From a virus (Duplodnaviria; Caudoviricetes): a stretch of DNA of 55,726 bases. Position numbers and translations under genes: made by a program. Location: positions 1-55,726 of the IMG/VR virus record IMGVR_UViG_3300017938_000011. One strand, given 5' to 3'. Shown here piece by piece: positions 1-12,502 of this stretch. Positions within the stretch are counted from its first letter, which is position 1. Each line of letters opens with the position of its first letter. Below the pieces are notes generated by a model. It was given only the letters and a program-made list of their open reading frames with translations. It searched no databases and had not been told where the DNA came from.

Positions 1-203
1 ACGATCCCGATGACCTGTTGCACCTGCGGGTCGAGCATCGCCTTGACCTTGTCCATCGGCGCGTCGTTGCCTTCCGGGACTGGTTCGGCGAGCGCCTCGC
101 GGAGCTTGTTGACTTTGCCTTCGATCGCGGGACCGCCGAGCTGACCGTTGGCGCGTTGGTCAAAATCGGCGATTGAATCGCGTGGCTTTTCGTCTTCCGT
201 CAT
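1..203 (-). CDS. Hypothetical phage protein, runs off the left edge
   Basis: ATG at 203-201, frame open to position 1 (MTEDEKPRDSIADFDQRANG...); same strand as terL. Confidence 0.6.
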   Translation of the reverse strand, partial: MTEDEKPRDSIADFDQRANGQLGGPAIEGKVNKLREALAEPVPEGNDAPMDKVKAMLDPQVQQVIGI

Positions 204-267
204 AGGAGTTCTTCTTTTGCTGTAAGCATCGCCTTTATGGCCTGAATTTTTGTTTCATCCCTTATAT

Positions 268-605
268 CATGCTTATCCGGTTTAGACACACAGCCCTACA
301 TCTTGTGGTCAGGTTCGCGCCCGTGAAAATCTTGGGCTTGGTCCCAGCGTTCGCCGGTCTCGCCGCCTTTGCTTACCGAGCAAACGATAGATGCCCATTC
401 CGCCGCTGGAATTACCAATGTGGTGCGGCCATCACCCGGCGCGCAGTTAGGATCGTGCTTTTCAAAGTCGCCGTGATTGCGAACTTCTACGCTGCCATCC
501 GGCAGCCGCGACCAGTACCATCCATTTTGCCAGTGAAAAGCCATCGTCATTTTCTCCTATATCTAGTGGGTTTCAGGGCTTGTGTGTGGCAACCGGATAA
601 GCAAT
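268..605. mobile_element. Non-autonomous IS1595-like cargo element E1
   Basis: Left end catGCTTATCCGGTTTAGACACACA (268-292), right end TGTGTGTGGCAACCGGATAAGCaat (581-605); encloses one ORF; no transposase; no 8-bp TSD. Confidence 0.8.
296..550 (-). CDS. Cargo hypothetical protein of E1 (84 aa)
   Basis: AGGAGA RBS before the ATG; TAG stop lies within the element's subterminal palindrome. Confidence 0.75.
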   Translation of the reverse strand: MTMAFHWQNGWYWSRLPDGSVEVRNHGDFEKHDPNCAPGDGRTTLVIPAAEWASIVCSVSKGGETGERWDQAQDFHGREPDHKM

Positions 606-679
606 GTTTTCGTTTTTAAGCGGCATATTCTGAAACGTTTGAAGACGCATCAGTAAGTTCGGATGGAATCGAAATTCGT

Positions 680-886
680 TCATCGTCGCCTCTCCTTAAT
701 AAAACAGCTTAAACCATAGATGAAAAACCAAGGCCAAAGAGAAATTCCTAAAAACGAATCTATAATTCCTTCGTGCCAACTTTTGCGGAAATGCGAAAAT
801 CTCTTGGTGATAAGGTCCATCGTTTGTAGAAATAAACCTATAAGCAAATATAAAGTTAACGCAATTAGTTCGAGATCGTCGCTCAT
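680..886 (-). CDS. Small two-TM membrane protein
   Basis: Two hydrophobic stretches; AT-rich; GGGAGA RBS. Confidence 0.6.
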   Translation of the reverse strand: MSDDLELIALTLYLLIGLFLQTMDLITKRFSHFRKSWHEGIIDSFLGISLWPWFFIYGLSCFIKERRR

Positions 887-1006
887 CGTCGTTCTCTCTG
901 TTTAGCGCCAGCAAAGTGAGCGATGCGCCACCATCGTAACGGCAGGCTGGACGCGCGTGGCACCGGCAATGTGTCCGATTTGCATTTCAGAACCCTTTCG
1001 CGTTGT

Positions 1007-1084
1007 TTATAGACGCCAAAGTAGCGCATAGATAGGAATCATTGCTACAGCGATACCGAGCACGATCCACCATTCCACCGGCAT
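1007..1084 (-). CDS. Putative 25-aa hydrophobic peptide
   Basis: MPVEWWIVLGIAVAMIPIYALLWRL starts 1 nt after the extended terL stop. Confidence 0.35.
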   Translation of the reverse strand: MPVEWWIVLGIAVAMIPIYALLWRL

Positions 1085-1137
1085 CTCAGAATCCCTTTGC
1101 GTTACCAAGGGCAATCGCCACGCCATAACAGAAGCAG

Positions 1138-2442
1138 TCAAAGCAAGTCGTCGGACCGAGTCGGCGTCTTGTCGCCGACTCGGAAGCCAACGACTTCCCC
1201 TAAGAGATGATTCCTGGTTGTGCCTTTGTAAATCGTCGTTTTGTCATAGGCGTGGCGGCTGATCTTGACGAAGCCGCGATAGACGTATCCAGAGACAGAG
1301 ATTGCGCGCTCGTCCTTGCCTAGAGCTGTCAGCTTAGAATCGATCGCATGCGCTGGCCAGCCGCGCCGCATGGCCTGTTGAATCAGGACCATGCCCGTCG
1401 CTTTATCCTCGATCATTGAACCGAGAGAGCCCATGCGAGCATGGCAAGTTTGCGCGAAATGTTGCAGATGCTGGAAGACAGTCGGGAGCCAAGTCTCCAA
1501 TAGCGCGCCTTCGATCTGCTGAATATCCCAATCGAGGATGATGAGATTGTATTGCGGGCCAACAACGCCTTCAGCGGAGACCGACCGAATAACGTTTCGG
1601 AGGAGCGCGTAATAGACCACCGCCGTTCCATCGTTTTCCTTCCCGGTCTTTACGGCCGTGTCGATAACGGCGAACACAGCTTCGCAGCGAATGGGATAAT
1701 CTACGGGCTGACCATTCACAAGCAAGCTGTCGCGCGTGAAAAAAGCCGACCCTGACCAATCCACAAATTCAGCAAGAAATTCTTGCTCATAAACGAGCGG
1801 GAGATTGTCTCGTTGTAATGCCTCGACCTCGGCGCGGGGAAGATACGGATTTGATCGTGTCGGGGCATGAAATTGAACAAAGCCGTATCTCGCCTCATTG
1901 CATAGCGCAAACAACATGTTGTCAGGATCGATGCCGTTTGTGTTCGACATCATCAGCGCGCGGCCGCCGTAATCGAGAAGCGTCGGTTTGATCGATTTCG
2001 TCCAGATGTCGATCGACTTCGGCTTGGTGAATGCGATTTCGTCGCCGATGACGCGATGGTATTTCCGGGACCGGCCGGCGTTCTCGTCCTCCATCGACCA
2101 GAACTCGACGCGGCCTCCGGTGATGGTCTCGATCATGCCGTGGGTCTTGTCGGATCGTTTCTTGATCGGATCCAGCGCCTCGACGATGACGTTGTAGCTC
2201 TCGGAGAGCCGCTTGTTCTCCGGGGCGAACCAGCCGACCCGCAGGCCGTGCGCGGCATCATCGCTGGCGACCGTCTCGCCGACGACGTTCTTGCCCCATC
2301 GCCGACCACAGCGGGCGACCACGAACCGGCACTGCGACATCAGCCAGCGAAGTTTCGCTTGGGCCGGGAAGAACGTCGGGAGATTGACGACCGCCGTCTC
2401 GGAGTTCTGCGGCGGCAGATCGAGAAGTGTGGCGTCGGACAT
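1138..2442 (-). CDS. terL: Terminase large subunit; C-terminus continues to 1086 in the +1 frame
   Basis: Walker A-like CGRRWGKN, Walker B VIGDE, nuclease IDTA...D and DDLL; +1 frame gives DCFCYGVAIALGNAKGF*. Confidence 0.93.
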   Translation of the reverse strand: MSDATLLDLPPQNSETAVVNLPTFFPAQAKLRWLMSQCRFVVARCGRRWGKNVVGETVASDDAAHGLRVGWFAPENKRLSESYNVIVEALDPIKKRSDKTHGMIETITGGRVEFWSMEDENAGRSRKYHRVIGDEIAFTKPKSIDIWTKSIKPTLLDYGGRALMMSNTNGIDPDNMLFALCNEARYGFVQFHAPTRSNPYLPRAEVEALQRDNLPLVYEQEFLAEFVDWSGSAFFTRDSLLVNGQPVDYPIRCEAVFAVIDTAVKTGKENDGTAVVYYALLRNVIRSVSAEGVVGPQYNLIILDWDIQQIEGALLETWLPTVFQHLQHFAQTCHARMGSLGSMIEDKATGMVLIQQAMRRGWPAHAIDSKLTALGKDERAISVSGYVYRGFVKISRHAYDKTTIYKGTTRNHLLGEVVGFRVGDKTPTRSDDLL

Positions 2443-2456
2443 CGTCTATTACGATC

Positions 2457-2642
2457 CTACTTTTTGGGTAGTGTTGTCCCAAATGAAACGGTCGGCCGGG
2501 AAATCGCAGCAGTCATTGGCAGGCAAGCCGGCGCCTTGTCGCCGTCATCCCAAGCGAGGCCGCACCGTTCGCACTCCCAACCTGCCCAACCTGTGGCGAG
2601 CTGCTGGGCGACGCAGACGATGGCAGGTTTCTCTTCACTCAT
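2457..2642 (-). CDS. Small Cys-containing hypothetical protein
   Basis: MSEEKPAIVC...WECERCGLAWD; overlaps the upstream stop. Confidence 0.5.
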   Translation of the reverse strand: MSEEKPAIVCVAQQLATGWAGWECERCGLAWDDGDKAPACLPMTAAISRPTVSFGTTLPKK

Positions 2643-2868
2643 ACGCGATTGCCCATCCGTAGATCTCTTGCGCGGCATTCTGATAGGCGGCAGCGCGAGC
2701 CTTGGCAGCACCATAATCTGCGCCAGGGAACTGCTCTGACTTCTCCTGTTTCTGACTCAGCCAATCGCCGGCGCGGTAAAAAGCTAGTCGGGTCGCGGCG
2801 TCGGCGATCTTGGCTTCTCGCTCAGAAAGGTTTTCAAGCAATGTGCGATCGTCATCTGCTCGGCTCAT
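2635..2868 (-). CDS. Hypothetical protein
   Basis: ATGA coupling with the upstream gene in a tiled operon. Confidence 0.6.
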   Translation of the reverse strand: MSRADDDRTLLENLSEREAKIADAATRLAFYRAGDWLSQKQEKSEQFPGADYGAAKARAAAYQNAAQEIYGWAIAYE

Positions 2869-3122
2869 GCGCTGCGCGCCTCTCTGGCATTGACACCCAT
2901 GCCGATACCATGAATTTCCTTTTGCCGGTCGACTCGGAGATCAAGCGACCCTTGCAAAGGACTGATTCTCTTAGGCCGCGTTGTCGCAGGTAAGTGCCTG
3001 ATTTTTCTGATCATTGCACCGATTCTCTTGTGAGGCCGTTCTGACGCTTTTGCCGCGACGATTTGCGCTTTTTTGATGATGTCGGCGACGGTGTCTGCAA
3101 TTAATTTGGCGCGTATTGTCAT
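2865..3122 (-). CDS. Basic hypothetical protein
   Basis: MTIRAKLIAD..., GGAG RBS, ATGA overlap. Confidence 0.55.
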   Translation of the reverse strand: MTIRAKLIADTVADIIKKAQIVAAKASERPHKRIGAMIRKIRHLPATTRPKRISPLQGSLDLRVDRQKEIHGIGMGVNAREARSA

Positions 3123-3436
3123 GTTTTGCTCTCCGCCTTTCGACGCCACCAGGTTCGCTCCGAAATACCTTGGGCAACCCACGGCTTGCGTTGCGTGATC
3201 GTTTCCTGTTCGCTTCCGCGCCGCGGACGGCCACCAGTTCCCTTTGGCGGACCTTTCCGTTTCTTTGGCGGCTTGGACGTTATGCCAGTCAAGATCTTCA
3301 CCGCCGTAATAGTGGCCTTGGCTACTCCGATCATACCGCCAGAATGCTTCGTTGGTTTGTTCGGCGTTCCCATGAATTTGGGGCACGGCCCGATGCGATG
3401 CCGTTCGCCGCACGTCCTGCATTTCACTGCGTCCAT
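3119..3436 (-). CDS. Basic putative DNA-binding protein (Zn-knuckle plus HTH-like tail)
   Basis: CRTCGERH...C at the N-terminus; KPWVAQGISERTWWRR at the C-terminus. Confidence 0.6.
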   Translation of the reverse strand: MDAVKCRTCGERHRIGPCPKFMGTPNKPTKHSGGMIGVAKATITAVKILTGITSKPPKKRKGPPKGTGGRPRRGSEQETITQRKPWVAQGISERTWWRRKAESKT

Positions 3437-3469
3437 GACATACTTAAAGGCATACTTTTGGCACGGTGT

Positions 3470-4150
3470 CTAGCTCGCCGCGGCTCTCGGCGGCGGCAAC
3501 GGCGCTGATTCTTCGCCTTCTGGCGGATCATCCTCGGCCGTGATCACCGTCAGCGCCGGCAACGCCGCGCCCTCTAGCTCCACTGAAGGCTTAAAATCAT
3601 TAGGCATTCCGCCTTCCACCTTGATCTTCGTCACCACGGTCGCCCCGACGACAACGGCCGAATAGCGGGGATCCTGGAACGGTGCCAACGCCTTGGCGGC
3701 ATCGACCGCCAGCGCGGCGTATTTGTCGAATTTCGCGTCGTCCGGCTTCCGACCCGGCGGCGGCACGGTCATCCCCGGAGGGAGCGGCTGAGACACCGCC
3801 GCCATCCCCGCGAACAATTCCATGAAGTTTTCCAATACCTTCTTGGCCCGCCTCGAATCCGGCATGCCCTTGCGTTCCAAGGCCTCGATCGCCGCGTCCT
3901 TCGCCACCGCCGCGGCCGCCGCCTCCCGGGCAACCCGCTTTAATCTCTCGATCTCGAGCGTCTTCTTGTTCTTGATGCCGGGCTTGCGGCCGCCTTTGCC
4001 CTTGGGTGGCCCGCGTTTCTTCTGCGGACGCCCGTCTTTCGTTAATTTGATGGGAGGTGGCTCACTACCGGCAATGTTGGTTCCGCCTTCCAGCGGCGTT
4101 TTCTGCGCGATTGCGGGGCCTTCTGGTGGCGATGGGAGATCGTCTGACAT
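3470..4150 (-). CDS. Putative terminase small subunit
   Basis: GGRKPGIKNKKT motif typical of TerS-like proteins; upstream of terL. Confidence 0.65.
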   Translation of the reverse strand: MSDDLPSPPEGPAIAQKTPLEGGTNIAGSEPPPIKLTKDGRPQKKRGPPKGKGGRKPGIKNKKTLEIERLKRVAREAAAAAVAKDAAIEALERKGMPDSRRAKKVLENFMELFAGMAAVSQPLPPGMTVPPPGRKPDDAKFDKYAALAVDAAKALAPFQDPRYSAVVVGATVVTKIKVEGGMPNDFKPSVELEGAALPALTVITAEDDPPEGEESAPLPPPRAAAS

Positions 4151-4227
4151 GCCTTGAAAATAGTTTATGAAACTTAATTTTGGAAACTTTTTTGTTAAAC
4201 CATTGATTTCATATATGCTTATCCGGT

Positions 4228-4398
4228 TTAGACAGACAGCCTTACAGCTTGTGGTTCGTGGGTTAGCAACAGTTGCATGAGATGCTGATCTTTGCCGCTG
4301 CGAAGATCGTAAACGCCGATGCGGCTGAAATCGGCGCTGAGGCGGCTCAACCAGTCTCCGGAAAAGTCAACGGACAAATAATCCGGGCAATTGTCCAT
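4228..4398 (-). CDS. 56-aa cargo ORF of E2
   Basis: AGGAG RBS, MDNCPDYLSVDF...; TAA stop lies inside the terminal repeat. Confidence 0.45.
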   Translation of the reverse strand: MDNCPDYLSVDFSGDWLSRLSADFSRIGVYDLRSGKDQHLMQLLLTHEPQAVRLSV

Positions 4399-4676
4399 CG
4401 CTCCTAATTGTACGTGCGCGTAGCGTCACGACCGTCCGCAAAGGTACGCGCAATATTAGGAGCGTCGCGGCTTCCTTGCCTTTGGCCGGTGCCCGCCGGC
4501 TGGTGACGGTGACCATGTCGGTTCTCCCCGACCGGAGAATCGCAGGCGAGGGTTAATGGTTCCTGACAAAAGCCGCCGCGAAGCACCTGGGGCGGCAGCG
4601 TTTCCGGGCGGTGTAGGGCCGCCAGCTTCACTTTTTGGATCAATAAATCGGTCGCAAAAATGAAGCCCAGACCGCG

Positions 4677-4910
4677 CTATGAGCTAGCATCCGCCCGGTT
4701 CCAAGACGCCAGCCCAGCTAAAACACGCCATATCATAACAATGGCATTGTTATTGGATAATTTGCAGTGGCGTAGGGCGTATGGCCAAGGCCCCTCTCGA
4801 AGGGCGAGATCGATTTCTTCATTGAGAAGCGGATCGTCCTCAAATGCCGCTCTAGCAACTGCCGCTACAGCTTCTTCTTCTCCGGGCACCATGAGATGAT
4901 ACGTCAACAT
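4677..4910 (-). CDS. Cargo ORF of E2 (77 aa)
   Basis: ATG provided by the subterminal palindrome (MLT...). Confidence 0.4.
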   Translation of the reverse strand: MLTYHLMVPGEEEAVAAVARAAFEDDPLLNEEIDLALREGPWPYALRHCKLSNNNAIVMIWRVLAGLASWNRADASS

Positions 4911-4955
4911 CTAGTATCTCTCAGAATTTGTGTGTGGCAACCGGATAAGCATGAT

Positions 4956-5177
4956 TCAGAGTGTCGGCCTTTTATAGCCCAGATACCGAAGCGTTGCGGC
5001 TTCCCAGTCGAGATCGTTCATGTTCTCGCGGAATGTCGCGTCGGCAGCACTAATGACAGCCTTGGCAACATCGGGATCGTCGTATTCGATGTAGTCCTGG
5101 CCGGTCCAGCGGGAGGCGGCTTGGGTGATGATGCGGGAGCGGCGGGCGAGGTGGTCAGTGGTGGAGCGGTGGTTCAT
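4956..5177 (-). CDS. Hypothetical protein
   Basis: 73-aa ORF with plausible composition between E2 and E3. Confidence 0.55.
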   Translation of the reverse strand: MNHRSTTDHLARRSRIITQAASRWTGQDYIEYDDPDVAKAVISAADATFRENMNDLDWEAATLRYLGYKRPTL

Positions 5178-5377
5178 CAGAGTGCGGTTGCTTTCTGCGT
5201 CGATCCATCATTGCGCGGCATCGGCGATCACGGCAAGTTCCGCCCGTTTTTCTAGTTCCTGATAACTCGGAAGTGGCAACTTTAGTTTCTCCGCGCGACC
5301 AATCCAGAAGCTATGACGATAACAGTGTGAACGGTTAGCCGAAGGCTCGGGCGCGTCGAGGTCGTAGCCATCCATAT

Positions 5378-6052
5378 CATGCTTATCCGGTTGACACACA
5401 CAGGCCGAAAATGCCCCAACATGTAGTGGCTCCTTCATGGTCTACCTGTAGTGGGTTGCTTGATTTCGATGGCGTGCGTGATGTGCCACTTGCCGCTCGC
5501 GCGCGGATATTGCGAGATCAAGTGAGGGGCGATGACGCGCGTCCAATCCTGCAAAGAGCACCATCCGGTGCCGTTATTCATGCAGTTGATGTCAAAAACC
5601 CCGTAGGAAGATCGGCCACCCTGACCGCCAACCCAATGGGTATAGCGATAGCGGGCGCGCATCGGCACCTCGGGGCGCGTCCATGGCCCCTCCCATTGAA
5701 TGCGAACAAGCCCATAGCGGGGCCAACCGATAAAATCGTCCGGCGTAAGGGCGTAGCCGAGCGCCGCAGAGCGATATTTTGCGCCGATGCTTTTCAGCGC
5801 ATCAAACATCATCGTTGGGTTCGTGTAGCGCTTGTAATCAAAGCCGATCAGGTGCGGTCGTACTTCATCCAGCGTCATGCCCATGATCGCGGCGAGCGCG
5901 CCGGGGCCGCAATTTGCGCCCCATTCATCGTGAGCGCGGTCGGCGTCGGCCAACGTGAAACGCGGCGCTATAGGTTGTGTTGCGCTCGCCGCCGGGTCTT
6001 TCGTCTGTGTCGTCAACATTTAGTACCTGTGTGTGTCAACCGGATAAGCATG
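5378..6052. mobile_element. Non-autonomous IS1595-like cargo element E3 with perfect 8-bp TSD
   Basis: 27-bp perfect TIR CATGCTTATCCGGTTGACACACACAGG; ATCCATAT at 5370-5377 and 6053-6060. Confidence 0.92.
5435..6019 (-). CDS. Cargo of E3: putative papain-fold (C39-like) cysteine peptidase
   Basis: NCGPGALA ... THWVG ... FDIN gives a Cys/His/Asp pattern; fills the element. Confidence 0.65.
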   Translation of the reverse strand: MLTTQTKDPAASATQPIAPRFTLADADRAHDEWGANCGPGALAAIMGMTLDEVRPHLIGFDYKRYTNPTMMFDALKSIGAKYRSAALGYALTPDDFIGWPRYGLVRIQWEGPWTRPEVPMRARYRYTHWVGGQGGRSSYGVFDINCMNNGTGWCSLQDWTRVIAPHLISQYPRASGKWHITHAIEIKQPTTGRP

Positions 6053-6203
6053 ATCCATATAGCCTTCGATCATTTCAGCGTTCGCTTGTTTCATGGTACA
6101 CCCGATTGATTCGCAGGATAGAGAAATATTTACCTATTGTCTAGACGGGCGCGGCCCCAATGCGCTAACGTATCGGCCCGGAGTAAAGTTGTGGAGAGTT
6201 CCG

Positions 6204-6611
6204 ATGCCGAACTTGAGGCCGCGGGCGCGCGACTTGCTGATCGAGTATCTCGACGGGCGACACGTCCCGATCATCCGCCAGCAACGCAACGGGCATTTCT
6301 CGAACTGCGATCCCGACGTTTCCCGCCGGAACCAGTCTATCGGCGCGTTGCTCAAGCAAGGCTGGATCAAGCCCGTCACCGTGGCCGGGAAGGCCGGGCC
6401 CATCGCCACCGTCATCACCGAGGCCGGGCGGCAGGTCATATCCGAAGCCCTCGCGGATTGGGCCGACGCGCTCGACAGGGCCAGGATCGCCAGCGATTTT
6501 GCGCTGGACAACGCCGCCGATTCACGGCTTAATGATCGGGCGCCGGTGCAGGGAAACGTTTACCTTCCGCTCAAACCCTCTCCCTCCGCCGCCGATAGGA
6601 GCGACCCATGA
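6204..6611 (+). CDS. Hypothetical protein, possibly winged-helix
   Basis: GGAG RBS; LLKQGWI...VITEAGRQ motif resembles a wHTH wing. Confidence 0.6.
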   Translation: MPNLRPRARDLLIEYLDGRHVPIIRQQRNGHFSNCDPDVSRRNQSIGALLKQGWIKPVTVAGKAGPIATVITEAGRQVISEALADWADALDRARIASDFALDNAADSRLNDRAPVQGNVYLPLKPSPSAADRSDP

Positions 6612-7030
6612 GATACGACTACATCACCGAATCCGGCAAGACGATCACGCAGGACACGCGCGATGTCTGGCCAACGCGCGCTTTCACCGCGACTGGGCAA
6701 GGCGTCACCGTTCACAAATCGACCGGACGCCTATTCGTCGCAACCGGCGAGGATGAGATCGTTCCGCTGGTCAGGCGAACCGCCCCGGTTCGCAACATCA
6801 TCGAAGCCGCCGCCCGTTGCGACGATCTCTTCCTCGCCATGCGGACGATCTCCGACGCGCTGGAGTTGGAACGGCTGCGGCTCGCCGAGGCGAACCTGAG
6901 CAATGCCGCCCGCTGGCGCCGTCTTCCCCATTCCGCGAGGCTGAAGGAGATCGCGGGGTGGCTCACTGCGGAGTGCTTCGAACTCATGGATCTCATCGAA
7001 GTCGATCACGTCAGCACCATCGGAGATTGA
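6608..7030 (+). CDS. Hypothetical protein
   Basis: AGGAG RBS, ATGA overlap. Confidence 0.7.
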   Translation: MRYDYITESGKTITQDTRDVWPTRAFTATGQGVTVHKSTGRLFVATGEDEIVPLVRRTAPVRNIIEAAARCDDLFLAMRTISDALELERLRLAEANLSNAARWRRLPHSARLKEIAGWLTAECFELMDLIEVDHVSTIGD

Positions 7031-7032
7031 CC

Positions 7033-7293
7033 ATGAGCGCGCGCATGACGCCCATCGTCAAACTCGCTCGCGAGATTTGGTGGTGGGACTTCTCGCCGAG
7101 AGGACGGCGGAAATACCGCAAGGCATCGCAGTGGCAAGCGATCAAAGAGGATAAGCGTCAGATGTACCTCTCTGAGGCTCGCCGCTTCGCCTACCTGCTC
7201 AAGCGAATCGATGTGAATGTCCTCAATGACAATCTTGAGATCATCCAAATCATGTTTATCCGGTTGCCACACACAAACGCGGAGAGCCACTAG
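7033..7293 (+). CDS. Hypothetical protein, 3' end interrupted by E4
   Basis: GGAG RBS, MSARMTPIVK...; last codons read through the E4 end to TAG. Confidence 0.55.
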   Translation: MSARMTPIVKLAREIWWWDFSPRGRRKYRKASQWQAIKEDKRQMYLSEARRFAYLLKRIDVNVLNDNLEIIQIMFIRLPHTNAESH

Positions 7294-7756
7294 ATGTTGA
7301 CGGAGGTGAAAATGGAGCGGCCGTTGATGAAATGCGGATGCGTCGCGCAAGGCGTTCTTCGCGCCAGAGGCGGCGAGACTTTGGACCCGCCGATCCCGGC
7401 TTATGTTGTCCATGAGTGCTACGATGTTGCGGACGATAAGCCCGATTTGACTGGCCGCATCGCACAATGTGCCTATTTGCCAAAAGGACATGCGCCCAAG
7501 CCGTCGTCCTATGATCTGGCGTTTTTTGAATATCTTGGTCCCGGCTCCCGAGAGTCGTCTGACCTGTGCAAATGCGGCTTCTCAAAAAAGCCCCACGATG
7601 AAAATGGCGGTCGTATTCCGCCGAAAAAGTACGCCGCCAACATGAAAGGTTGTGCAGCTTTCACGCCGAAAGGTCCCGCCGAGTTTGACCGCTACTATTG
7701 TGGTTGCCACGGATGGGACTAGGGGTAGGGCTGTGTGTCTAAACCGGATAAGCATG
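7251..7756. mobile_element. Non-autonomous IS1595-like cargo element E4 (inverted relative to E1/E2)
   Basis: catGTTTATCCGGTTGCCACACACA ... TGTGTGTCTAAACCGGATAAGCatg; flanks ATCCAAAT / ATCCAAAC (7/8 TSD). Confidence 0.88.
7294..7722 (+). CDS. Cys-rich cargo protein of E4
   Basis: CGC, CKCG and YYCGCHGWD motifs; alternative start 7312 with GGAGG; start and stop lie in the subterminal boxes. Confidence 0.75.
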   Translation: MLTEVKMERPLMKCGCVAQGVLRARGGETLDPPIPAYVVHECYDVADDKPDLTGRIAQCAYLPKGHAPKPSSYDLAFFEYLGPGSRESSDLCKCGFSKKPHDENGGRIPPKKYAANMKGCAAFTPKGPAEFDRYYCGCHGWD

Positions 7757-7837
7757 ATCCAAACAGCCGAGAGAATCCGCGACTGCGGATTCCCCGATTT
7801 CCTTAACCGCTGGCTGATGATGCTGGAGGAGGAGAAC

Positions 7838-8251
7838 ATGGTTGCGATCGGACCAAAAGAACAAGCCCTGCGCGATGCGCGGAGAATTACTGCCCGCTCG
7901 GCAAAGCCAGCAGAATCAGCCGCGAAAGCGGCCCAACAGGAGGTCCCAATGGAGACCCAAACCACGGAGAGTGTCGTGAGCAAGACGAAGAAAACAGCGA
8001 AGTCGAAAAAGCCCGCCCGCGCGAAATCCCGCACGACGGTGAAGCCTGAAGCCAAGACGAATGGCATCCGGGCAGGATCGAAGCTGGAGATCATCGTTGG
8101 CCTCCTGAAGCGGCCAGAAGGCTGCACGATGGCTGAAGTAACCGAGGCTGTCGGCTGGAAAACCATGAGTTTCCCGCAGCAGGCCAAAGCCGCAGGGTTG
8201 ACGCTGAAGAAAGAAAAGGACGGATCGGTGACCCGCTATCGGGCCGCCTGA
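7838..8251 (+). CDS. DUF3489-like domain protein
   Basis: GSKLEIIVGLLKRPEGCTMAEVTEAVGW; GGAGGAG RBS. Confidence 0.75.
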   Translation: MVAIGPKEQALRDARRITARSAKPAESAAKAAQQEVPMETQTTESVVSKTKKTAKSKKPARAKSRTTVKPEAKTNGIRAGSKLEIIVGLLKRPEGCTMAEVTEAVGWKTMSFPQQAKAAGLTLKKEKDGSVTRYRAA

Positions 8252-8287
8252 GCCAATACGCGCGCCGCTGGTGCGGCCATGCCGGGG

Positions 8288-8313
8288 AGAGCGCCATCAG
8301 GGCGCTCTTTCTC
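8288..8313 (+). terminator. Intrinsic terminator
   Basis: AGAGCGCC-atcag-GGCGCTCT followed by a T-rich tract, between convergent genes. Confidence 0.55.
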
Positions 8314-8479
8314 GTTTAAGCGCCTACGGGCGCCCTGTGGCTCGGCGGCAGGGCATCCGCAGGGCTAGGCCATATGGACTGACCATTGGTCATGATGCGT
8401 CCCCCGGAGGCTCGGGAGCGGTATCCAGCCGAGCAGGACGTAATCCATCGCCAGAGCGAAGGGCGCGAAGCGGTGCAGG

Positions 8480-9886
8480 CTAACTGAGCTTTTCCAATCT
8501 GGCGCGCAATTTGTCGCCTGAGATGAGTTGTTCGGGATGCTCTTTGATTTCAGCGAGTCGCTTGCGGGCAATTCGGACATCGCGCTCATCCTCTGTTTCT
8601 CGTTTCGCCTTCCCCTTGCGGCGCGCGGCCGCGACTTGGTCTAGCGTCTTTCCGTCAAGCGTCGCTAGCCGATTCGTAAAACGCTGCCAACGCACGATGC
8701 TGACTTCGACAAAACGAGGATCAACGTCCATTGCTGCGGCTTTCCGGCTGTTCATCTCGCAGGCAATAATCGAGCCGCCAGCGCCGACGAAAGGATCAAA
8801 AACGATTTGGCTGACCTTACTGCTATTCGCTATTGCCTCGGCCGCGAGCGCAACCGGTTTCTGGGTCGGATGCTCGTAGTCGGATTTTTGGGCATCGCGA
8901 TTTAGCGTCCAAACAGTCGTCTTAGTTCGATCCCCATAGAAGCGGTGCTTGCCCTTTCCTGGCTTCCATCCGTAGAGCATCGGCTCATGTTGCGAGCGAT
9001 AGTCCTGCCAGCCCATCCCGGCCGCTTGCTTCACCCAGATGATCGTCGCTGACTTCGTAAAGAACTCAGCGAAAGCGCGCTCGAAGGCGAGTTTCGGACC
9101 AGATGCAGCGTCGGGATGGCAAACATAGATCGAGGCCAAGTTCTTCATATTCGCCGCGATCACTTCGAACGATGATCGCAGGAAAGCGGCAAAGTCCTTC
9201 TCGCTCATGTCGTCATTCTTGATCGTACCGAGCCTATTCTGGCCGAGGCCAGAATAGGCTAGGTTGTAGGGCGGATCGGTGAAGACGAGGTCGGCTTGTG
9301 CGCCCCCGCCCATGCACATTGCCACGTCAGATTCGGACGTAGCATCGCCGCAGACTAAGATGTGGTCCCCTAAGACCCAGCGATCACCGCGACGCACTAC
9401 CGGCTTCTTCGGCGGCTCCGGTGTGGCTTCTGGATCGGCTTGGCCTTCGGTGCCCATTTGGACGCCCCAGCCGCGAAGCTGAGATTCGGGGAAGCCGAGC
9501 AAGGGAACGTCGTAGCCAGCGAGTTTGAGATCCTTAAGTTCGGCGGTGATCAGCTCGACTCCCCACGTCGAAAGTTCGGCATAGGAATTATCTTTGATCC
9601 TGACGGCGCGCTTCTTCTCTTCGGACCAGCCAATCGCTACGGCGACTGGATAGCGCGTATACCCATTCTGAAGAGCCGCAAGTCGCCGACCGTGTCCGTA
9701 AATGATCACGCCTGCTTCATCGACGAGGATCGGAGCGGTGACTCCATCATCCTTCATTGAGGAGGCAATGAGATCAATCTGAGCCTGAGAATGTTGGCGT
9801 GGATTTTTCTCATAAGGCCGGATTTTTTCTATCGGCCACAGCGCGACCTTTGATGCTGGCCATGTCTCTTCAAGTCGCTTCGCCAT
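8480..9886 (-). CDS. ParB-N-terminal-domain DNA amino-methyltransferase (N4/N6)
   Basis: PYEKNPR/GHGRRLAA ParB-like domain; DPPY, HPTQKP, DPFVGAG motifs. Confidence 0.92.
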   Translation of the reverse strand: MAKRLEETWPASKVALWPIEKIRPYEKNPRQHSQAQIDLIASSMKDDGVTAPILVDEAGVIIYGHGRRLAALQNGYTRYPVAVAIGWSEEKKRAVRIKDNSYAELSTWGVELITAELKDLKLAGYDVPLLGFPESQLRGWGVQMGTEGQADPEATPEPPKKPVVRRGDRWVLGDHILVCGDATSESDVAMCMGGGAQADLVFTDPPYNLAYSGLGQNRLGTIKNDDMSEKDFAAFLRSSFEVIAANMKNLASIYVCHPDAASGPKLAFERAFAEFFTKSATIIWVKQAAGMGWQDYRSQHEPMLYGWKPGKGKHRFYGDRTKTTVWTLNRDAQKSDYEHPTQKPVALAAEAIANSSKVSQIVFDPFVGAGGSIIACEMNSRKAAAMDVDPRFVEVSIVRWQRFTNRLATLDGKTLDQVAAARRKGKAKRETEDERDVRIARKRLAEIKEHPEQLISGDKLRARLEKLS

Positions 9887-10095
9887 CAGGCCACCTTCGG
9901 CCGCGCGCCGGGGAGCGGCTCTTTTGGGTCATCGTACCACCGGACCGCCTTCAGCGGCCACGGCCCTTTTCCTCCCGGCATGTCGACGTCGAGATCGACG
10001 AGCTTGCCATCGAGCCGGACGTTCGTCACCATGGCGCTCCAAATATCGCCGGCAAAGCTCCGATAGGTTACACGCTCGTTGATGGCAGGCATCAT
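9886..10095 (-). CDS. Hypothetical protein
   Basis: 69 aa, coupled to the MTase start. Confidence 0.6.
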   Translation of the reverse strand: MMPAINERVTYRSFAGDIWSAMVTNVRLDGKLVDLDVDMPGGKGPWPLKAVRWYDDPKEPLPGARPKVA

Positions 10096-10307
10096 GGTTC
10101 CTTCGGCTTGTTCGTGTGCCCTTTGAAAAACTCTGGCATCGCTTCCGCGACGGTGCGGTTGAGGAATGGCTCTGGATCGTTAGTCGAGATTGCGACGCGG
10201 CTTCTCGCCATCCCAGCTTCGAACGCGCCAAATAGCTTCAGCGCGGCCGCAGCGATTCGGTAGTCGCGCGGGATGCGGAGCGAGGTCGAGTTCTCGATGA
10301 TCTGTTT
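10092..10307 (-). pseudogene. 3' remnant of a gene truncated by the IS1595 element
   Basis: Open frame KQIIENSTSLRIPRDY...KPKEP* begins at the element boundary with no start codon. Confidence 0.45.
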
Positions 10308-10322
10308 TATGCTTATCGGGTT

Positions 10323-11396
10323 TCAACATGCAGTGTCTAGCGGTTGATCGTCATCATGACTGACCTTTTGATGCTGCCACTTGCCGCTGTAGAGGCCGTC
10401 ATAGGTCGGGCTTTCACCGTTCGCGCCGATGCCCAAGAGGGAGCGGAAGGCGTTGAACGGGTAGAAGCGGCGATTGAAGCGGAAGGCAAATTCGTTGAGG
10501 TAGGCTTGAAGGTGCTTTGGCTCGACGCGCCCGTGATGGGTGCTTTGCAGCCATGCTTTGAGGTTGCTGAAAACAAGGTGGACGATGGGCAGGTATTCTT
10601 CCGCGACTTCGGGATTGCCACCTTCGACCACCGGCAGATGGGCATAGCCGCGTTTTTCGAGCGAATTATACGCGGGAGCCGCGTCGGTGATGACGATTGC
10701 GCCAATGGCGACGGCGGCTTCCACAAACCCGCAAAGAGCCTTTTCGGTACGATCTGGCACAATCTCGATACGAAGCCGCCCCGCGTATCGGCCGCCTCTC
10801 CGCATGGGCTTGTCGCCTTTCTTAGCTGCCCGCTGGCGGACTTCGACGGCAGCAATAATCAGGCATTTTTCATCGGCGTGGGGGCCTTTGCCCTTCCCGC
10901 GCGTCTTGCCGCCGATGTAGCACTCGTCAACCTCGACGTGATCGCTACGCGCCAGATTGCCGCCGATGGGATCGCGGTTAGGTCGCACCATGCCCGCCCG
11001 CAGCTTGTGCAGGATTTGGAAGGCGGTTTCGTAGCAGCCGACACCGACTTGCCGATGCAATTGCACCGCCGAAATGCCGGGTGTCATGCTCGAAACAAGA
11101 TAAGCGGACCAAAACCATGCCGTCAGGGACGTGTGGGTTCCTTCCATGACGGTTCCGACCGTGATGGAAGTTTGCTTTCGGCAGGCGCGGCAGGCCAGCA
11201 CCTTCGGCCGACTCGCCAAGCGCACCGGCTCGCCCTTTTCGTGGCAGTGCGGGCATTCAAAGCCCTTCAACCATTTCGCGCCTTCAAGCCAACGGGCACA
11301 CGCGGCATCGTCAGGAAAGAGCCGCTGGAAGTCTTTGAGAGATTTCGGGAAGGGCAGGTGTTCCCATTGATGAACGTCGGGGATGGCGGGCGACAT
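10323..11396 (-). CDS. IS1595-family DDE transposase
   Basis: N-terminal Zn ribbon (CPHC...CRAC), VEVDECYIGG, ITD, YLNEFAFRFNRR; stop lies inside the TIR. Confidence 0.95.
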   Translation of the reverse strand: MSPAIPDVHQWEHLPFPKSLKDFQRLFPDDAACARWLEGAKWLKGFECPHCHEKGEPVRLASRPKVLACRACRKQTSITVGTVMEGTHTSLTAWFWSAYLVSSMTPGISAVQLHRQVGVGCYETAFQILHKLRAGMVRPNRDPIGGNLARSDHVEVDECYIGGKTRGKGKGPHADEKCLIIAAVEVRQRAAKKGDKPMRRGGRYAGRLRIEIVPDRTEKALCGFVEAAVAIGAIVITDAAPAYNSLEKRGYAHLPVVEGGNPEVAEEYLPIVHLVFSNLKAWLQSTHHGRVEPKHLQAYLNEFAFRFNRRFYPFNAFRSLLGIGANGESPTYDGLYSGKWQHQKVSHDDDQPLDTAC

Positions 11397-11666
11397 CTAT
11401 CCGCTCACTTTTTGCCCTTCGGCTTCCGCAGTCGCACATGCATCGCAATAATCCCCAACAAGATCAGCGCCGCAGCACTCGCAAATTCCTTCTACTGGCG
11501 CATCCCACGCGCCGCGTGGCGACGGACAGCCCGCACCTTCACATTCTGGACACTTTCCAATATCGGTTTCGAGGCTAGGATCGTCCGGTTGCGGGTCGTG
11601 CCGCATGAGGCGACCGTCTATGCACCGGGTCTGGGTAGTATGGAAACTACGGTTTCGGCGGCTCAT
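11397..11666 (-). CDS. Passenger gene: Zn-finger-rich small protein
   Basis: CPEC, CECC and CDAC motifs; stop abuts the transposase ATG. Confidence 0.65.
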   Translation of the reverse strand: MSRRNRSFHTTQTRCIDGRLMRHDPQPDDPSLETDIGKCPECEGAGCPSPRGAWDAPVEGICECCGADLVGDYCDACATAEAEGQKVSG

Positions 11667-11669
11667 AAT

Positions 11670-11918
11670 TTAGGCCCCCGCGTGGATCGGATGACGAATG
11701 TCGTGACCACAGATCGCGCATTCGTCGATGGATTTGCCGACCATCGTCCCGGCAGCATGGCAATGGTCACGCTGTTCGGCGACGATCAGGGTCTTTTTCG
11801 TGGCTTCGTATGCCGCCTCAATGTGATCCATGATGATTTTGTCATCGGATGGCGCACGTTGCCGAATAGCCGCCCCAAGGTGGCCAAGGATGTTTTCAAG
11901 GTGCTGGACTTTCATCAT
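11670..11918 (-). CDS. Passenger gene: hypothetical protein
   Basis: 82 aa with CAICGH; GGAG RBS. Confidence 0.65.
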   Translation of the reverse strand: MMKVQHLENILGHLGAAIRQRAPSDDKIIMDHIEAAYEATKKTLIVAEQRDHCHAAGTMVGKSIDECAICGHDIRHPIHAGA

Positions 11919-11921
11919 GGC

Positions 11922-12347
11922 TCAGGCTCCAACACCGAATTGCCCATTATCGGCTCGGATTTGTTCGGCCTGTTTCTGGCGATCAGAGCACCAACCCCGC
12001 AGACCGTTGTCGATGATCCCGCCCCTTCCGATCAGCGACTCGACGTTGATCGAAGTGCTCGGGGCGTTGTTGGCATCGAAATGGAGCCAAGTTCCATCGC
12101 GACCGCAGTTAATCGACAGTCCGCAATCATCTATCGGGATAGTCGTGGCTTGTTCGATTTTGGCGGGACTGGCGGGCAGCGGCATCCAATGTGTCGGTTG
12201 CTCGTCAGCCGGGTAGGGCGAATAAGCCGGACCATTTGTGGCCCAACACCCTTGCTGCCGGTGCCAATGGCAAACGGTCATCCATTGGCCTGTGCAAGCA
12301 AGGAAACTGGACCCGTCTTTCGGTGCGCTCTCAATCAGTTTCCACAT
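11922..12347 (-). CDS. Passenger gene: DUF551-like protein
   Basis: WKLIESAPKDG...PTHWMPLP signature; AGGAG RBS. Confidence 0.8.
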   Translation of the reverse strand: MWKLIESAPKDGSSFLACTGQWMTVCHWHRQQGCWATNGPAYSPYPADEQPTHWMPLPASPAKIEQATTIPIDDCGLSINCGRDGTWLHFDANNAPSTSINVESLIGRGGIIDNGLRGWCSDRQKQAEQIRADNGQFGVGA

Positions 12348-12389
12348 CTTAGTCTCCTGTTAACTAAGGCCGTCCATCGGCCTAACCAT

Positions 12390-12418
12390 TATCTAGCACA
12401 GGTAGGTGCATGTGTCAA
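12390..12418 (-). promoter_or_regulatory. Inward-facing sigma70-like promoter in the E5 end
   Basis: TTGACA-17nt-TAGATA pointing into the passenger/transposase operon. Confidence 0.6.
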
Positions 12419-12431
12419 CCCGATAAGCATG

Positions 12432-12502
12432 AAACGAAATGCCTTGTCGGTCTCCCCGCGCTTCTCGGCGGCAATATCGACCACTTCCCGATGTCTACTC
12501 AC
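12432..12502 (-). pseudogene. 5' remnant of a small phage gene cut by E5
   Basis: GTG overlapping the upstream stop; SRHREVVDIAAEKRGETDKAFRF runs into the TIR. Confidence 0.5.

Follow-up and report, generated by a model that had tools for sequence, protein, structure and literature searches.

A passenger-carrying IS1595-family element and transposase-less cargo cassettes among the core genes of a phage

Five elements with IS1595-type ends

The window, i.e. the whole 55,726-nt stretch of phage DNA analysed here, was searched for GCTTATCSGGTT allowing at most one mismatch, which returned 11 sites where 0.47 were expected, a number reached in none of 100 shuffles. Ten of these sites pair in opposite orientations (+/-) and delimit five elements, at positions 268-605 (E1), 4214-4953 (E2), 5378-6052 (E3), 7251-7756 (E4) and 10308-12431 (E5), while the eleventh (40671, one mismatch) is without a partner. 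This bears out the five elements, with their coordinates and their bounding nnnGCTTATC(C/G)GGTT inverted repeats, that a preliminary description of this DNA had listed, as well as its statement that no others occur in the window. The motif stands, but the repeats are longer than was stated there (23-38 nt, with 83-89% complementarity), and the C>T change reported at one end was located at position 7255 (GTTTATCC). Forward ORFs make up 75-95% of each element (75-87% in E1-E4 alone), in agreement with the claim that cargo fills the space between the ends. As had also been read, the transposase is confined to E5, which holds the only IS1595 transposase match of the whole 55.7-kb record; searches of Pfam, PHROGs and NCBIfam revealed neither a transposase family in any ORF of E1-E4 nor any match for their cargo. 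The cassettes are interspersed with core phage genes, adjoining the terminase, and form no separate accessory region, so that their earlier placement in a phage accessory region does not hold.

E5 (10308..12431, minus strand; 2124 bp) has the features of an autonomous element of the IS1595 family that carries passengers; its tips are of the CGGG type and its ends conform to nnnGCnTATC(C/G)GGTT. Its inverted repeats (arms 10304-10332 and 12407-12435, 29 nt) are 86% complementary. The transposase (10323..11396, minus strand; 357 aa, full-length, sole copy in the genome) ends in a TGA lying within the inverted repeat, 15 nt from the tip. It combines a DDE domain (Pfam DDE_Tnp_IS1595, PF12762, 7e-33, profile positions 3-153 of 153) with an N-terminal zinc ribbon (Zn_ribbon_IS1595, PF12760, 2e-9) and matches NCBIfam transpos_IS1595 (NF033547, 3e-53, 181 bits against a cut-off of 75). 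Three passengers share its strand: a 141-aa protein with a Pfam DUF551 domain (11922..12347), an 82-aa protein (11670..11918) and a Cys-rich 89-aa protein (11397..11666), the latter two devoid of Pfam, PHROG and NCBIfam matches. A 69%-identical homologue of the DUF551 passenger makes up the whole cargo of L012_2172_2490, a cassette lacking a transposase.

E3 (5378..6052, minus strand; 675 bp, arms 5376-5413 and 6017-6054, 38 nt) is a cassette of the short-module subtype with its start at nt 34, and is flanked by a perfect 8/8 duplication, ATCCATAT, at 5370..5377 and 6053..6060. Identical copies occupy the same site in the related loci L053 and L095. Its cargo ORF (5435..6019, minus strand; 194 aa) belongs to a phage-restricted family, for which a papain/C39-like fold is a weak lead, and another cassette, in L019, carries cargo 64% identical to it. 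E4 (7251..7756, plus strand; 506 bp, arms 7249-7275 and 7732-7758), whose left tip bears the C>T change, is flanked by ATCCAAAT (7243..7250) and ATCCAAAC (7757..7764), which agree at 7 of 8 positions. Both duplications had thus been correctly described, and the empty-site comparison proposed at that time proved clean for E4: in L095, a 99%-identical relative, E4 is precisely absent and a single target copy is left, GAGATC ATCCAAAC AGCCGAG running uninterrupted, so that the right target copy equals the empty-site sequence. The Cys-rich E4 cargo ORF (7294..7722, plus strand) encodes 142 aa from the module ATG, or 136 aa from an ATG behind GGAGGTG, and fell into no known family of Pfam, PHROGs or NCBIfam.

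Comparison of the flanks showed no 8-bp target duplication at E1 (CCTTATAT/GTTTTCGT), E2 (ATTTCATA/ATTCAGAG) or E5 (ATCTGTTT/AAACGAAA), and the insertion events of these three elements themselves are therefore undocumented. E1 (268..605, minus strand; 338 bp, arms 270-292 and 581-603) is a transposase-less cassette with its 3' module at the left end and its 5' module at the right; an identical copy with the same flanks is present in L039, and 83 unrelated bp take its place in L053 and L095. Its ORF (296..550, minus strand; 84 aa, no Pfam, PHROG or NCBIfam match) has its own RBS variant, TAGGAG, after the module, and a TAG stop within the 3' module, 28 nt from the tip. E2 (4214..4953, minus strand; 740 bp) is a composite, decayed, transposase-less cassette. 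Its first ORF (4677..4910, minus strand; 77 aa) starts at the module ATG (ATGTTGACG) and its last (4228..4398, minus strand; 56 aa) matched no Pfam or PHROG family, with a possible 79-aa middle ORF between them (4404-4643). In L053 and L095, E2 is 1238 bp longer than the window copy and its right tip lacks 6 bp; the extra DNA holds a 119-aa ORF, a 3'-module remnant and the gene for a 284-aa DNA methyltransferase, and in L053 the first ORF begins ATGACG, after the methylase gene. At the E5 region L095 has about 370 unrelated bp. E1-E3 were found in contigs from runs dated 2014 to 2021.

Family members inserted by transposition in unrelated phages

The search of viral and metagenomic contigs for the repeat pair, as proposed in the preliminary description, was carried out on viral, metagenome and Hyphomicrobiales contigs (246 loci; inverted-repeat pairs less than 3 kb apart) and yielded 185 elements, 163 of them distinct, with a median length of 573 bp. 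Some family matches lie in genomes without clear prophage context. Perfect 8-bp duplications, exactly 3 nt outside GCTTATC, flank 124 of the 183 testable elements and are missing in 59; in the viral set, 58 of 86 were perfect at that offset and none at seven other offsets tried. The targets comprise 55 unique sequences with 30% GC, as compared with 57% in the flanks, and the insertion sites are AT-rich and intergenic, mostly short gaps that immediately precede the next phage gene. Eight pairs of elements share cargo 85-99.9% identical, while fewer than 100 nt of their 1.6-kb flanks align; among them are cassettes of 99.9% and 98.5% identity whose flanks are unrelated and whose perfect duplications differ. 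On account of these duplications, the empty site of E4 and the near-identical cassettes in unrelated flanks, the elements have really transposed, and family members have done so recently, in unrelated phages. Targets were also used more than once: the same 8 bp occur before, between and after two cassettes in L118, and before and between cassettes in L215, four distinct tandem junctions have a tip-to-tip spacing of exactly 8 nt, and the target CAAGAGAC carries different cassettes in L052 and in L044/L015.

The cassettes share two end modules of about 45 nt. In the 5' module the inverted repeat is combined with an ATG and with stop codons that close all three frames, and the 3' module contains the ORF stop, with the inverted repeat at its end. 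Among the 163 distinct elements, the start of the first ORF is at nt 44 in 56, nt 34 in 18, nt 37 in 12 and nt 59 in 10, and the distance between the last stop and the tip is 41 nt in 34, 28 nt in 20 and 14 nt in 16. An upstream ORF enters the module in only 15 of 94 insertions, so that the built-in stops would seldom be needed. Coding sequence accounts for 65-95% of 84 of the 88 viral-set elements. The elements are co-oriented with the neighbouring phage genes at 99 of 109 called flanks and, where both flanks could be called (n = 35), at both in 31 and opposed at both in none, these counts including a few near-identical loci (window/L039/L053/L095 and L017/L111); orientation was called with a home-made codon model, which for 81 of 88 elements gave the same direction as the ends.

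The preliminary description had raised the possibility that cargo is invariant across relatives. This is contradicted by the 199 cargo ORFs of the 163 distinct elements, which fall into 141 clusters (111 singletons), 23 clusters each being found at two or more different perfect duplications. Pfam families among them include C5 methylases, Dam, MT-A70, Mom, NADAR, RlaP nucleotidyltransferase and TnpB; a DHH phosphoesterase was named by PHROGs (3e-71), its Pfam DHHA1 match being under the family cut-off. DNA-modification genes are thus well represented, and the cargo probably consists of accessory genes for anti-restriction and counter-defence in Hyphomicrobiales phages.

Origin of the cassettes and source of the transposase

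E1-E4 have the ends of an autonomous IS, no transposase, unrelated passenger ORFs and, in E3 and E4, a target duplication of the parent's length; E5 has the DDE transposase with its N-terminal zinc ribbon and inverted repeats at both ends. We thus consider it likely (probability of roughly 85%) that E5 is an autonomous IS with three passengers and that E1-E4 are non-autonomous derivatives of the same IS1595 lineage, of the mobile insertion cassette (MIC) type. The earlier reading of one autonomous IS1595-type copy and four transposase-less cargo elements is supported, and the elements are not internal deletions of a plain IS, an origin it had considered.

Which transposase moves the cassettes is a separate matter. 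Transposases 64-85% identical to that of E5 occur at 23 viral loci, and 21 of the elements bearing them are complete, perfect 8-bp duplications flanking 17 of these; they measure 1.3-2.6 kb, all therefore with extra ORFs, and mostly have CCGG-type tips. The possibility, less probable than a transposase of the E5 clade but to be taken seriously, is that a different enzyme, matching the cassettes' own sub-terminal modules and encoded by a co-infecting phage, a prophage or the host chromosome, mobilises them; it affects only the source of the transposase. The tip of E5 has G at position 11, where the cassettes have C, and its sub-terminal 10-30 nt are also different (GACACATGCA versus GCCACACACAAACGCTGAG); neither the 21 relatives nor the 163 elements included one that combines a transposase with cassette-type modules at each end. 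Moreover, of 30 phage records that carry cassettes and are 90% complete or more, only 12 encode any IS1595 transposase (8 a close one), leaving 18 with none, and a metagenome contig (L205) carries a 61%-identical simple IS with an ACACACA-type end. On the other hand, the outer 15 nt (CATGCTTATCCGGTT) are identical in cassettes and most autonomous copies, even though the sub-terminal parts differ, and CCGG tips flank transposases 84-85% identical to that of E5. Sub-terminal sequences also vary among autonomous copies with perfect duplications, and strict recognition of this stretch may therefore be absent.

It is improbable that the window elements are inherited, immobile fossils, whose present activity is limited to reshuffling by homologous or illegitimate recombination between the conserved ends. 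Such a history would fit the lack of duplications at three of the five elements, the decay of E2 and its variation by internal deletions, the replacement of E1 and E5 by other DNA in relatives rather than their precise absence, the flank swaps seen between cassettes, and the recovery of E1-E3 over the 2014 to 2021 runs. It is opposed by the precise absence of E4 from a 99%-identical genome, with its single target copy, by the cassettes of 99.9% and 98.5% identity that lie in unrelated surroundings, each with a perfect duplication of its own, and by an E5 transposase that is full-length and matches whole Pfam and NCBIfam profiles.

Far less credible still is that the ends serve phage genes as regulatory or recombination modules, with genes exchanged by homologous recombination and not by transposition. 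Promoter stem-loop cassettes are known from T4-type phages, and the conserved 45-nt modules holding start codon and stop, the co-orientation with operons and the different cassettes at one site in related phages would all suit such modules. The reading is contradicted by the duplication statistics (124 of 183 with perfect 8-bp duplications of unrelated AT-rich sequence at one exact offset), and the ends are the same as in IS1595 elements that bear a transposase, and similar to those of ISAcr1. Nor was there a promoter, terminator or stable fold in the modules: positions 1-13000 of the window contain 6 promoter-like and 16 terminator-like sites, against 5.5 and 13.9 by chance, with no excess of either, and four modules (3' ends of E1, E3 and E4, 5' end of E4) folded no better than shuffles. 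A true integron-like system with a dedicated recombinase acting at a fixed attachment site, to which single-ORF, apparently promoterless cassettes and arrays with a constant-length spacer might point, is refuted for practical purposes by one-offset duplications at 55 different targets, by transposase-bearing relatives whose DDE transposase is the sole recombinase inside the elements, and by ends that are IS inverted repeats unlike attC sites.

Comparison with known systems and a model for cassette spread

The ISSod11 group of IS1595 (ISfinder) has nnnGcnTATC ends and 8-bp duplications, and passenger-carrying members exist. The ends found here, compared with this consensus, read (C/T)ATGCTTATC... 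and are compatible with it. Among named IS, ISAcr1 from Acidiphilium plasmids comes closest, with a transposase 60% identical to that of E5, the same IS1595 DDE domain and zinc ribbon, and 8-bp duplications; its ends read CTTGCCTATCCGGTTGAC... with the sub-terminal stretch CCTACTAGAT, or CTTGCCTATCC in the comparison with the ISSod11 consensus. ISAcr1 is a plain 1.07-kb IS, whereas E5 and its 21 complete phage-borne relatives carry extra ORFs, and the phage lineage has also yielded a large family of transposase-less cassettes.

MICs include MIC231 from the Bacillus cereus group, which IS231A mobilises in trans, and the Tn3-derived MICs of Xanthomonas. As in these, IS-type inverted repeats surround transposase-less passenger ORFs, autonomous relatives coexist and the target duplication has the length of the parent IS's (E3 8/8, E4 7/8; 124 of 183 in the family). 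The present cassettes differ in that (i) their parent is an IS1595-family element and their carriers are phage genomes, (ii) at least 141 cargo clusters occur in 163 elements, (iii) 45-nt end modules fix the start and stop of the ORF, (iv) the copies that are retained show a strong bias towards the direction of the host operon, and (v) tandem arrays form on a re-used 8-bp target. Passages of PMC6199540, PMC6542083 and PMC4337579 use the term mobile insertion cassette. The kind of element is thus already known, as MICs and passenger-carrying IS; we found no description in the literature of the present cassette family.

The cassettes resemble MITEs in being short and non-autonomous, with inverted repeats and target duplications, but MITEs are non-coding and the cassettes are mostly coding; with forward ORFs over 75-87% of E1-E4, this identity was rejected. 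MPMEs are ultra-small mycobacteriophage elements of about 440 bp whose one conserved ORF is thought to be their own transposase. They too are small, bounded by inverted repeats, carried in phage genomes and variably present among close relatives, but the cargo here is hypervariable and unrelated to transposition, and the transposase family is identified. The term MPMEs occurs in mycobacteriophage papers.

The likeness to integrons drawn in the preliminary description holds for the layout (mostly single, apparently promoterless ORFs, very diverse cargo, orientation with the driving transcription, tandem stacking) and fails for the mechanism. An integron has a tyrosine integrase with attI, and its cassettes end in attC and are inserted without target duplication. 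The present elements contain no tyrosine integrase, attI or attC; their insertion, by a DDE transposase at many AT-rich sites, produces 8-bp duplications, and the cassettes are dispersed between core genes of the phage instead of standing together in a single array.

In the model that we favour, an IS1595 transposase of the E5 clade would move the cassettes in trans, supplied by E5 itself or by a copy in a co-infecting phage, prophage or host. The eight pairs of near-identical cassettes with unrelated flanks lend indirect support to such movement in trans. Judged from the sequence, cassettes would lack a promoter and terminator of their own and be expressed by read-through from phage promoters, translation presumably beginning at the module ATG. 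A duplicated target that is hit again would give rise to tandem arrays, new cargo could be acquired by illegitimate or microhomology joins and by loss of the inner ends between neighbouring elements, and recombination between the conserved modules may swap cassettes and flanks. The net effect would be a transposase-driven plug-in system for accessory genes among Hyphomicrobiales phages.

Five elements in a complete phage genome

The window record (55,726 bp) is complete (100% by CheckV) and corresponds to a myovirus-like phage that encodes a tail sheath, a baseplate wedge, a RecT-like protein, a ParB-like DNA methyltransferase and a large terminase (1138-2442); its nucleotides 1 to 13000 matched no public phage record by megablast. 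When at most one mismatch was allowed, the motif GCTTATCSGGTT was found at 11 sites of the window, versus 0.47 expected. Ten of these 11 sites form five inverted pairs, with inverted repeats of 23 to 38 nt, at the ends of E1 (268-605), E2 (4214-4953), E3 (5378-6052), E4 (7251-7756) and E5 (10308-12431), so that the five elements, their positions and their ends stand as the preliminary description had them. The remaining match (40671-40682; GCTGATCGGGTT) carries one mismatch, has no partner, lies within a tail-sheath-like gene and is probably due to chance. Among the five elements only E5 encodes a transposase, as had been proposed, and this gene (10323-11396; 357 aa; Pfam DDE_Tnp_IS1595 and Zn_ribbon_IS1595, NCBIfam transpos_IS1595) is the single IS1595 transposase gene of the whole window genome. 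It is preceded within E5 by three ORFs of 141 aa (DUF551), 82 aa and 89 aa. The cargo ORFs of E1 to E4 showed no family match in Pfam, PHROGs or NCBIfam; in the Atlas, the E3 cargo fell only into phage 'hypothetical' clusters, with a weak C39-peptidase-like structural lead, and the E4 cargo matched nothing. The perfect and near-perfect target duplications previously assigned to E3 and E4 were both recovered, as ATCCATAT on each side of E3 and as ATCCAAAT and ATCCAAAC around E4; the flanks of E1, E2 and E5 showed no target duplication.

Three viral contigs (loci L039, L053 and L095) share about 99% identity with the window in this region. The E4 site is intact in L095 (...GAGATC ATCCAAAC AGCCGAG...) and holds a single copy of the target; E4 is therefore a true insertion, polymorphic among near-identical phages, and provides the empty site that the preliminary description had suggested looking for in relatives. 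At the position of E1, L053 and L095 have 83 unrelated bp instead, and L095 has about 370 other bp in place of the E5 region. In both L053 and L095, E2 is 1238 bp longer than in the window, the extra DNA comprising a 119-aa ORF behind the conserved 5' end module, then a 3'-module remnant devoid of the repeat and a 284-aa DNA methyltransferase. The right tip of this longer E2 has lost 6 bp (L053:6977-6990, compared with window 4939-4953), which should immobilise the L053 copy. In the short E2 of the window, the ATGTTGA of the module is fused to the downstream ORF at a TGA microhomology, and this fusion is one observed way for the gene behind a module to change. Two further differences were noted in this region. 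Window 2839-3110 (272 bp), which holds a small ORF on the minus strand, is absent from L053 and L095 and, having no inverted repeats, represents a gene indel of another kind; L095 is also devoid of window 7967-9674 (1.7 kb), which includes most of the ParB-like DNA methyltransferase gene (8480-9886).

The window phage was present in at least 20 sequencing runs from peat, wetland and soil (2014 to 2021), and its source may be among them; these data are assembled contigs, which break at repeats and are blind to rare excision or insertion events. Low-depth contigs of runs X3 and X18 skip 223-653, that is E1 and its immediate flanks (222 joined to 654), and this skip probably represents a third allele of the E1 site beside those of the window and of L053/L095. 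In one contig of run X1, position 6053 is followed by 5378 with 7 intervening letters (an 8-nt spacer when counted from the tip), at a depth of 4.4 versus 24 for the phage; this back-joint could stem from cassettes arranged in tandem elsewhere in the sample, or from a circle junction. Where run contigs show joints within the repeats of E3, other cassettes of the same samples are the probable source.

A family of cassettes with standard ends

The search for paired ends in viral and metagenome contigs, another check put forward at the outset, uncovered a large family. The pattern ATGCTTATCCGGTTNNNACACACA was found in 104 stretches of viral contigs, 25 of a one-genome-per-species collection and at least 116 of metagenome contigs, with at least 185 plus/minus pairs lying less than 3 kb apart (window included). 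Among the matches listed, at least 163 element sequences are distinct (median 573 bp; 153 shorter than 1 kb), and 124 of 183 testable pairs are flanked by perfect direct repeats of 8 bp that begin exactly 3 nt outward of GCTTATC. Such repeats occur at that offset in 58 of 86 elements of the viral set and in none at each of seven other offsets tried. Most phages carry one to three cassettes, which puts the five of the window at the top of the range. The genome matches fall mainly in Hyphomicrobiales and other Alphaproteobacteria (Bradyrhizobium, Rhodoplanes, Xanthobacteraceae, Pseudolabrys, Hyphomicrobium), and these 25 stretches in bacterial or MAG assemblies mean that the ends are not exclusive to phages. 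Two of these genomes are from cultured Hyphomicrobiales. In Bradyrhizobium viridifuturi (L117), one stretch at least without clear phage genes beside it, the neighbour is a FabG-like gene and none of the three ORFs tested is clearly of phage type; in Rhodoplanes elegans (L135/L136) the neighbours of the ends are tail-fibre-like genes.

A high AT content sets the 55 unique targets apart from their surroundings (GC 30% vs 57% in the flanks); they have only a weak consensus and lie mostly in gene junctions. The upstream ORF stops short of the element in 79 of 94 unique insertions and enters the module in the other 15, and the start of the next gene is often within about 20 nt of the element tip.

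Once oriented, the ends proved to be modules of about 45 nt, longer than the 12-15 nt repeats. The common 5' module, CATGCTTATCCGGTTGCCACACACAAACGCTGAGACCTACTAGATGTTGA, has stops in three frames and places the cargo ATG at nt 44; variants start at nt 34 or 37, or have TAGGAG with a start near nt 59. Among the matches listed, the start position of the first ORF is nt 44 for 56 of the 163 elements, nt 34 for 18, nt 37 for 12 and nt 59 for 10. In the common 3' module, (TGA)CCACAAGATGTAGGGCTGTGTGTCTAAACCGGATAAGCATG, the cargo stops 41, 28 or 14 nt from the tip. Promoter-like and terminator-like sites in window 1-13000 were at chance level, and four modules (3' of E1, E3 and E4; 5' of E4) folded no better than shuffled sequences. 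A layout for translational coupling, with the upstream gene stopping in the 5' module and a tip ATG restarting the downstream gene, is present in E3 and E4; as a family-wide feature it was reduced to a minor point, since an upstream ORF enters the module in only the 15 of 94 insertions noted above and the tip ATG comes first among the in-frame starts in 10 of 45 cases.

Flank orientation was called from codon usage, with a model for which long ORFs of the loci served as training set, after a test based on the longest open frame had yielded noise in this GC-rich DNA (69 co-oriented, 40 opposed) and misread E3. By this model, the flanks are co-oriented with the cassette in 99 of 109 called, a count that includes a few near-identical loci; where both flanks were called (35 elements), 31 elements have the two flanks in agreement with the cassette and no element has the two opposed to it, and E1 to E5 all agree with their flanks. 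Since the repeat tips are symmetrical, this bias probably reflects selection, and the copies kept may be those read through from phage promoters or not colliding with them.

Clustering of the enclosed cargo, also suggested in the preliminary description, assigned at least 199 forward ORFs to at least 141 clusters, 111 of them singletons among the matches listed, so that cargo diversity is far from sampled out. Pfam matches among 86 representatives of the viral set included two C5 methylases, Dam, MT-A70, Mom, NADAR, an RlaP nucleotidyltransferase, TnpB, DUF551 and ASCH, among others; PHROGs added further DNA methyltransferases, a PAPS reductase and a DHH phosphoesterase, the Pfam DHHA1 match of the latter being under the family cut-off. 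Most of the 86 representatives had no match in Pfam or PHROGs. Given the prominence of DNA-modification enzymes, the cargo may serve in anti-restriction and counter-defence. At L055:3703-4850, a 357-aa TnpB (OrfB_IS605 and Cas12f1-like TNB domain) is the sole ORF between IS1595-type ends, with no duplication.

Movement, tandem arrays and the source of transposase

For at least 23 cargo clusters, members are flanked by two or more distinct perfect duplications, and in at least 8 cassette pairs the cargo part is 85-99.9% identical while the flanks share fewer than 100 aligned nt. The cargo parts of L102 and L181 are 99.9% identical within unrelated flanks, and L011 and L025 (98.5% identical) lie between different duplications, CTATATTT and AATGGATA. 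Cassettes also stack head to tail: in assembled contigs, at least four distinct junctions have exactly 8 nt between a 3' tip and a 5' tip (tandem loci L118:2899-3806, L215:1507-2134, L066:2346-3026, L108:13836-13851 and L274:96-105), and one junction has 12 nt. The same 8 bp (CGTTGATC) stand before, between and after the two cassettes of L118, and in L215 the same 8 bp stand before and between its cassettes, a repetition that implies either a target hit again or dimer/circle-junction chemistry. Related phages carry different cassettes at the target CAAGAGAC, one of these cassettes with a swapped flank, which points to recombination between conserved modules. A different layout was seen at L081:1153-2685, where two co-oriented cassettes with GAGGATT-type flanks are separated by 432 bp of phage ORFs, GAAGGATT immediately following the first cassette and immediately preceding the second, without the normal arrangement of duplications.

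A protein-based scan of viral contigs identified relatives of the E5 transposase at 25 loci. Complete elements of 1.3-2.6 kb were delimited in 21 of the 23 loci examined, 17 with perfect 8-bp duplications, and all 21 are longer than a bare transposase gene and hence carry passengers, upstream or downstream. Their tips, CATGC(T/C)T(A/T)TC(C/G)GGTT, are chiefly of the CCGG type, which makes the CGGG type of E5 a minority form, and their sub-terminal parts (GACACATACA, GACACATGCA, GACACCCACA, GACTCCCAA) are unlike the cassette module. The sole hybrid, L150 (= L057), combines a cassette-type 5' end with an IS-type 3' end and has no duplication. A homologue of the DUF551 passenger of E5 (69% identical) is the only cargo of a transposase-less cassette (L012), and this shared cargo links the autonomous and transposase-less forms. 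The nearest named IS, ISAcr1 of Acidiphilium plasmids, is 60% identical and is a plain 1.07-kb IS with the ends CTTGCCTATCCGGTTGAC...CCTACTAGAT.

Among 50 records of cassette-carrying phages with a length of 30 kb or more, 14 encode an IS1595 transposase (9 a close one); for the 30 that are at least 90% complete, the numbers are 12 and 8, so most cassettes reside in genomes without a helper. Distant IS1595 transposases (28-35% identity) were considered as helpers, as they occur in cassette-bearing phages, and were set aside because their ends differ (e.g., GGCGATTATCCGG). This distant set (L164-L175; e.g., L173:711-2507), found in 8 of the 50 cassette-bearing phage records, shows that these phages host more than one IS1595 lineage.

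Relation to known elements and significance

In kind, the elements come under two known concepts, the mobile insertion cassette and the passenger-carrying IS, with a transposase and end type of the IS1595 family; the ends would fit the ISSod11-type consensus. They differ from MITEs in that they code for proteins. Integron cassettes resemble them in the single-ORF format, here apparently promoterless, and in cargo diversity, orientation rule and tandem stacking. In contrast to integrons, the elements themselves have neither integrase nor attC, and insertion is by a transposase, into many targets, with duplications made. The nature of the elements had been largely correctly recognised in the preliminary description, while its integron analogy and the role it gave to E5 were overstated. 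Full-text searches of openly accessible articles found no paper on IS1595-derived cassettes in phages and, as far as we have checked, the wider family is an undescribed variant of known element types.

The broadest reading, to which we give slightly less than an even chance (about 0.45), is that phages of Hyphomicrobiales host a dedicated cassette system, based on a transposase and active at present, which is functionally analogous to integrons and has 45-nt modules, an IS1595 transposase acting in trans, arrays and a pool of anti-restriction and counter-defence genes, and that this system forms a major route of accessory-gene exchange. The standard end modules would make any ORF a promoterless, translation-ready plug-in, which the transposase would drop into AT-rich gene junctions; re-use of the duplicated target would stack such plug-ins into arrays, and through the pool, unrelated phages would exchange methylases, Mom, NADAR and many genes of no known function.

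Minimal ends and a transposase could become a gene-insertion tool for alphaproteobacterial phages, and the conserved ends already serve as a search key, one scan yielding hundreds of candidate accessory genes with no assigned function. Phage genomes are generally regarded as poor in insertion sequences, and recombination is the usual explanation for the spread of phage accessory genes ("morons"). The IS lineage described here thrives in phages, and from it has come a standardised cassette format that comprises at least 141 cargo families, offering a concrete, testable mechanism by which small accessory and counter-defence genes may hop between unrelated phages. If the broad reading is true, IS-derived cassettes would be a major route of phage accessory-gene exchange.
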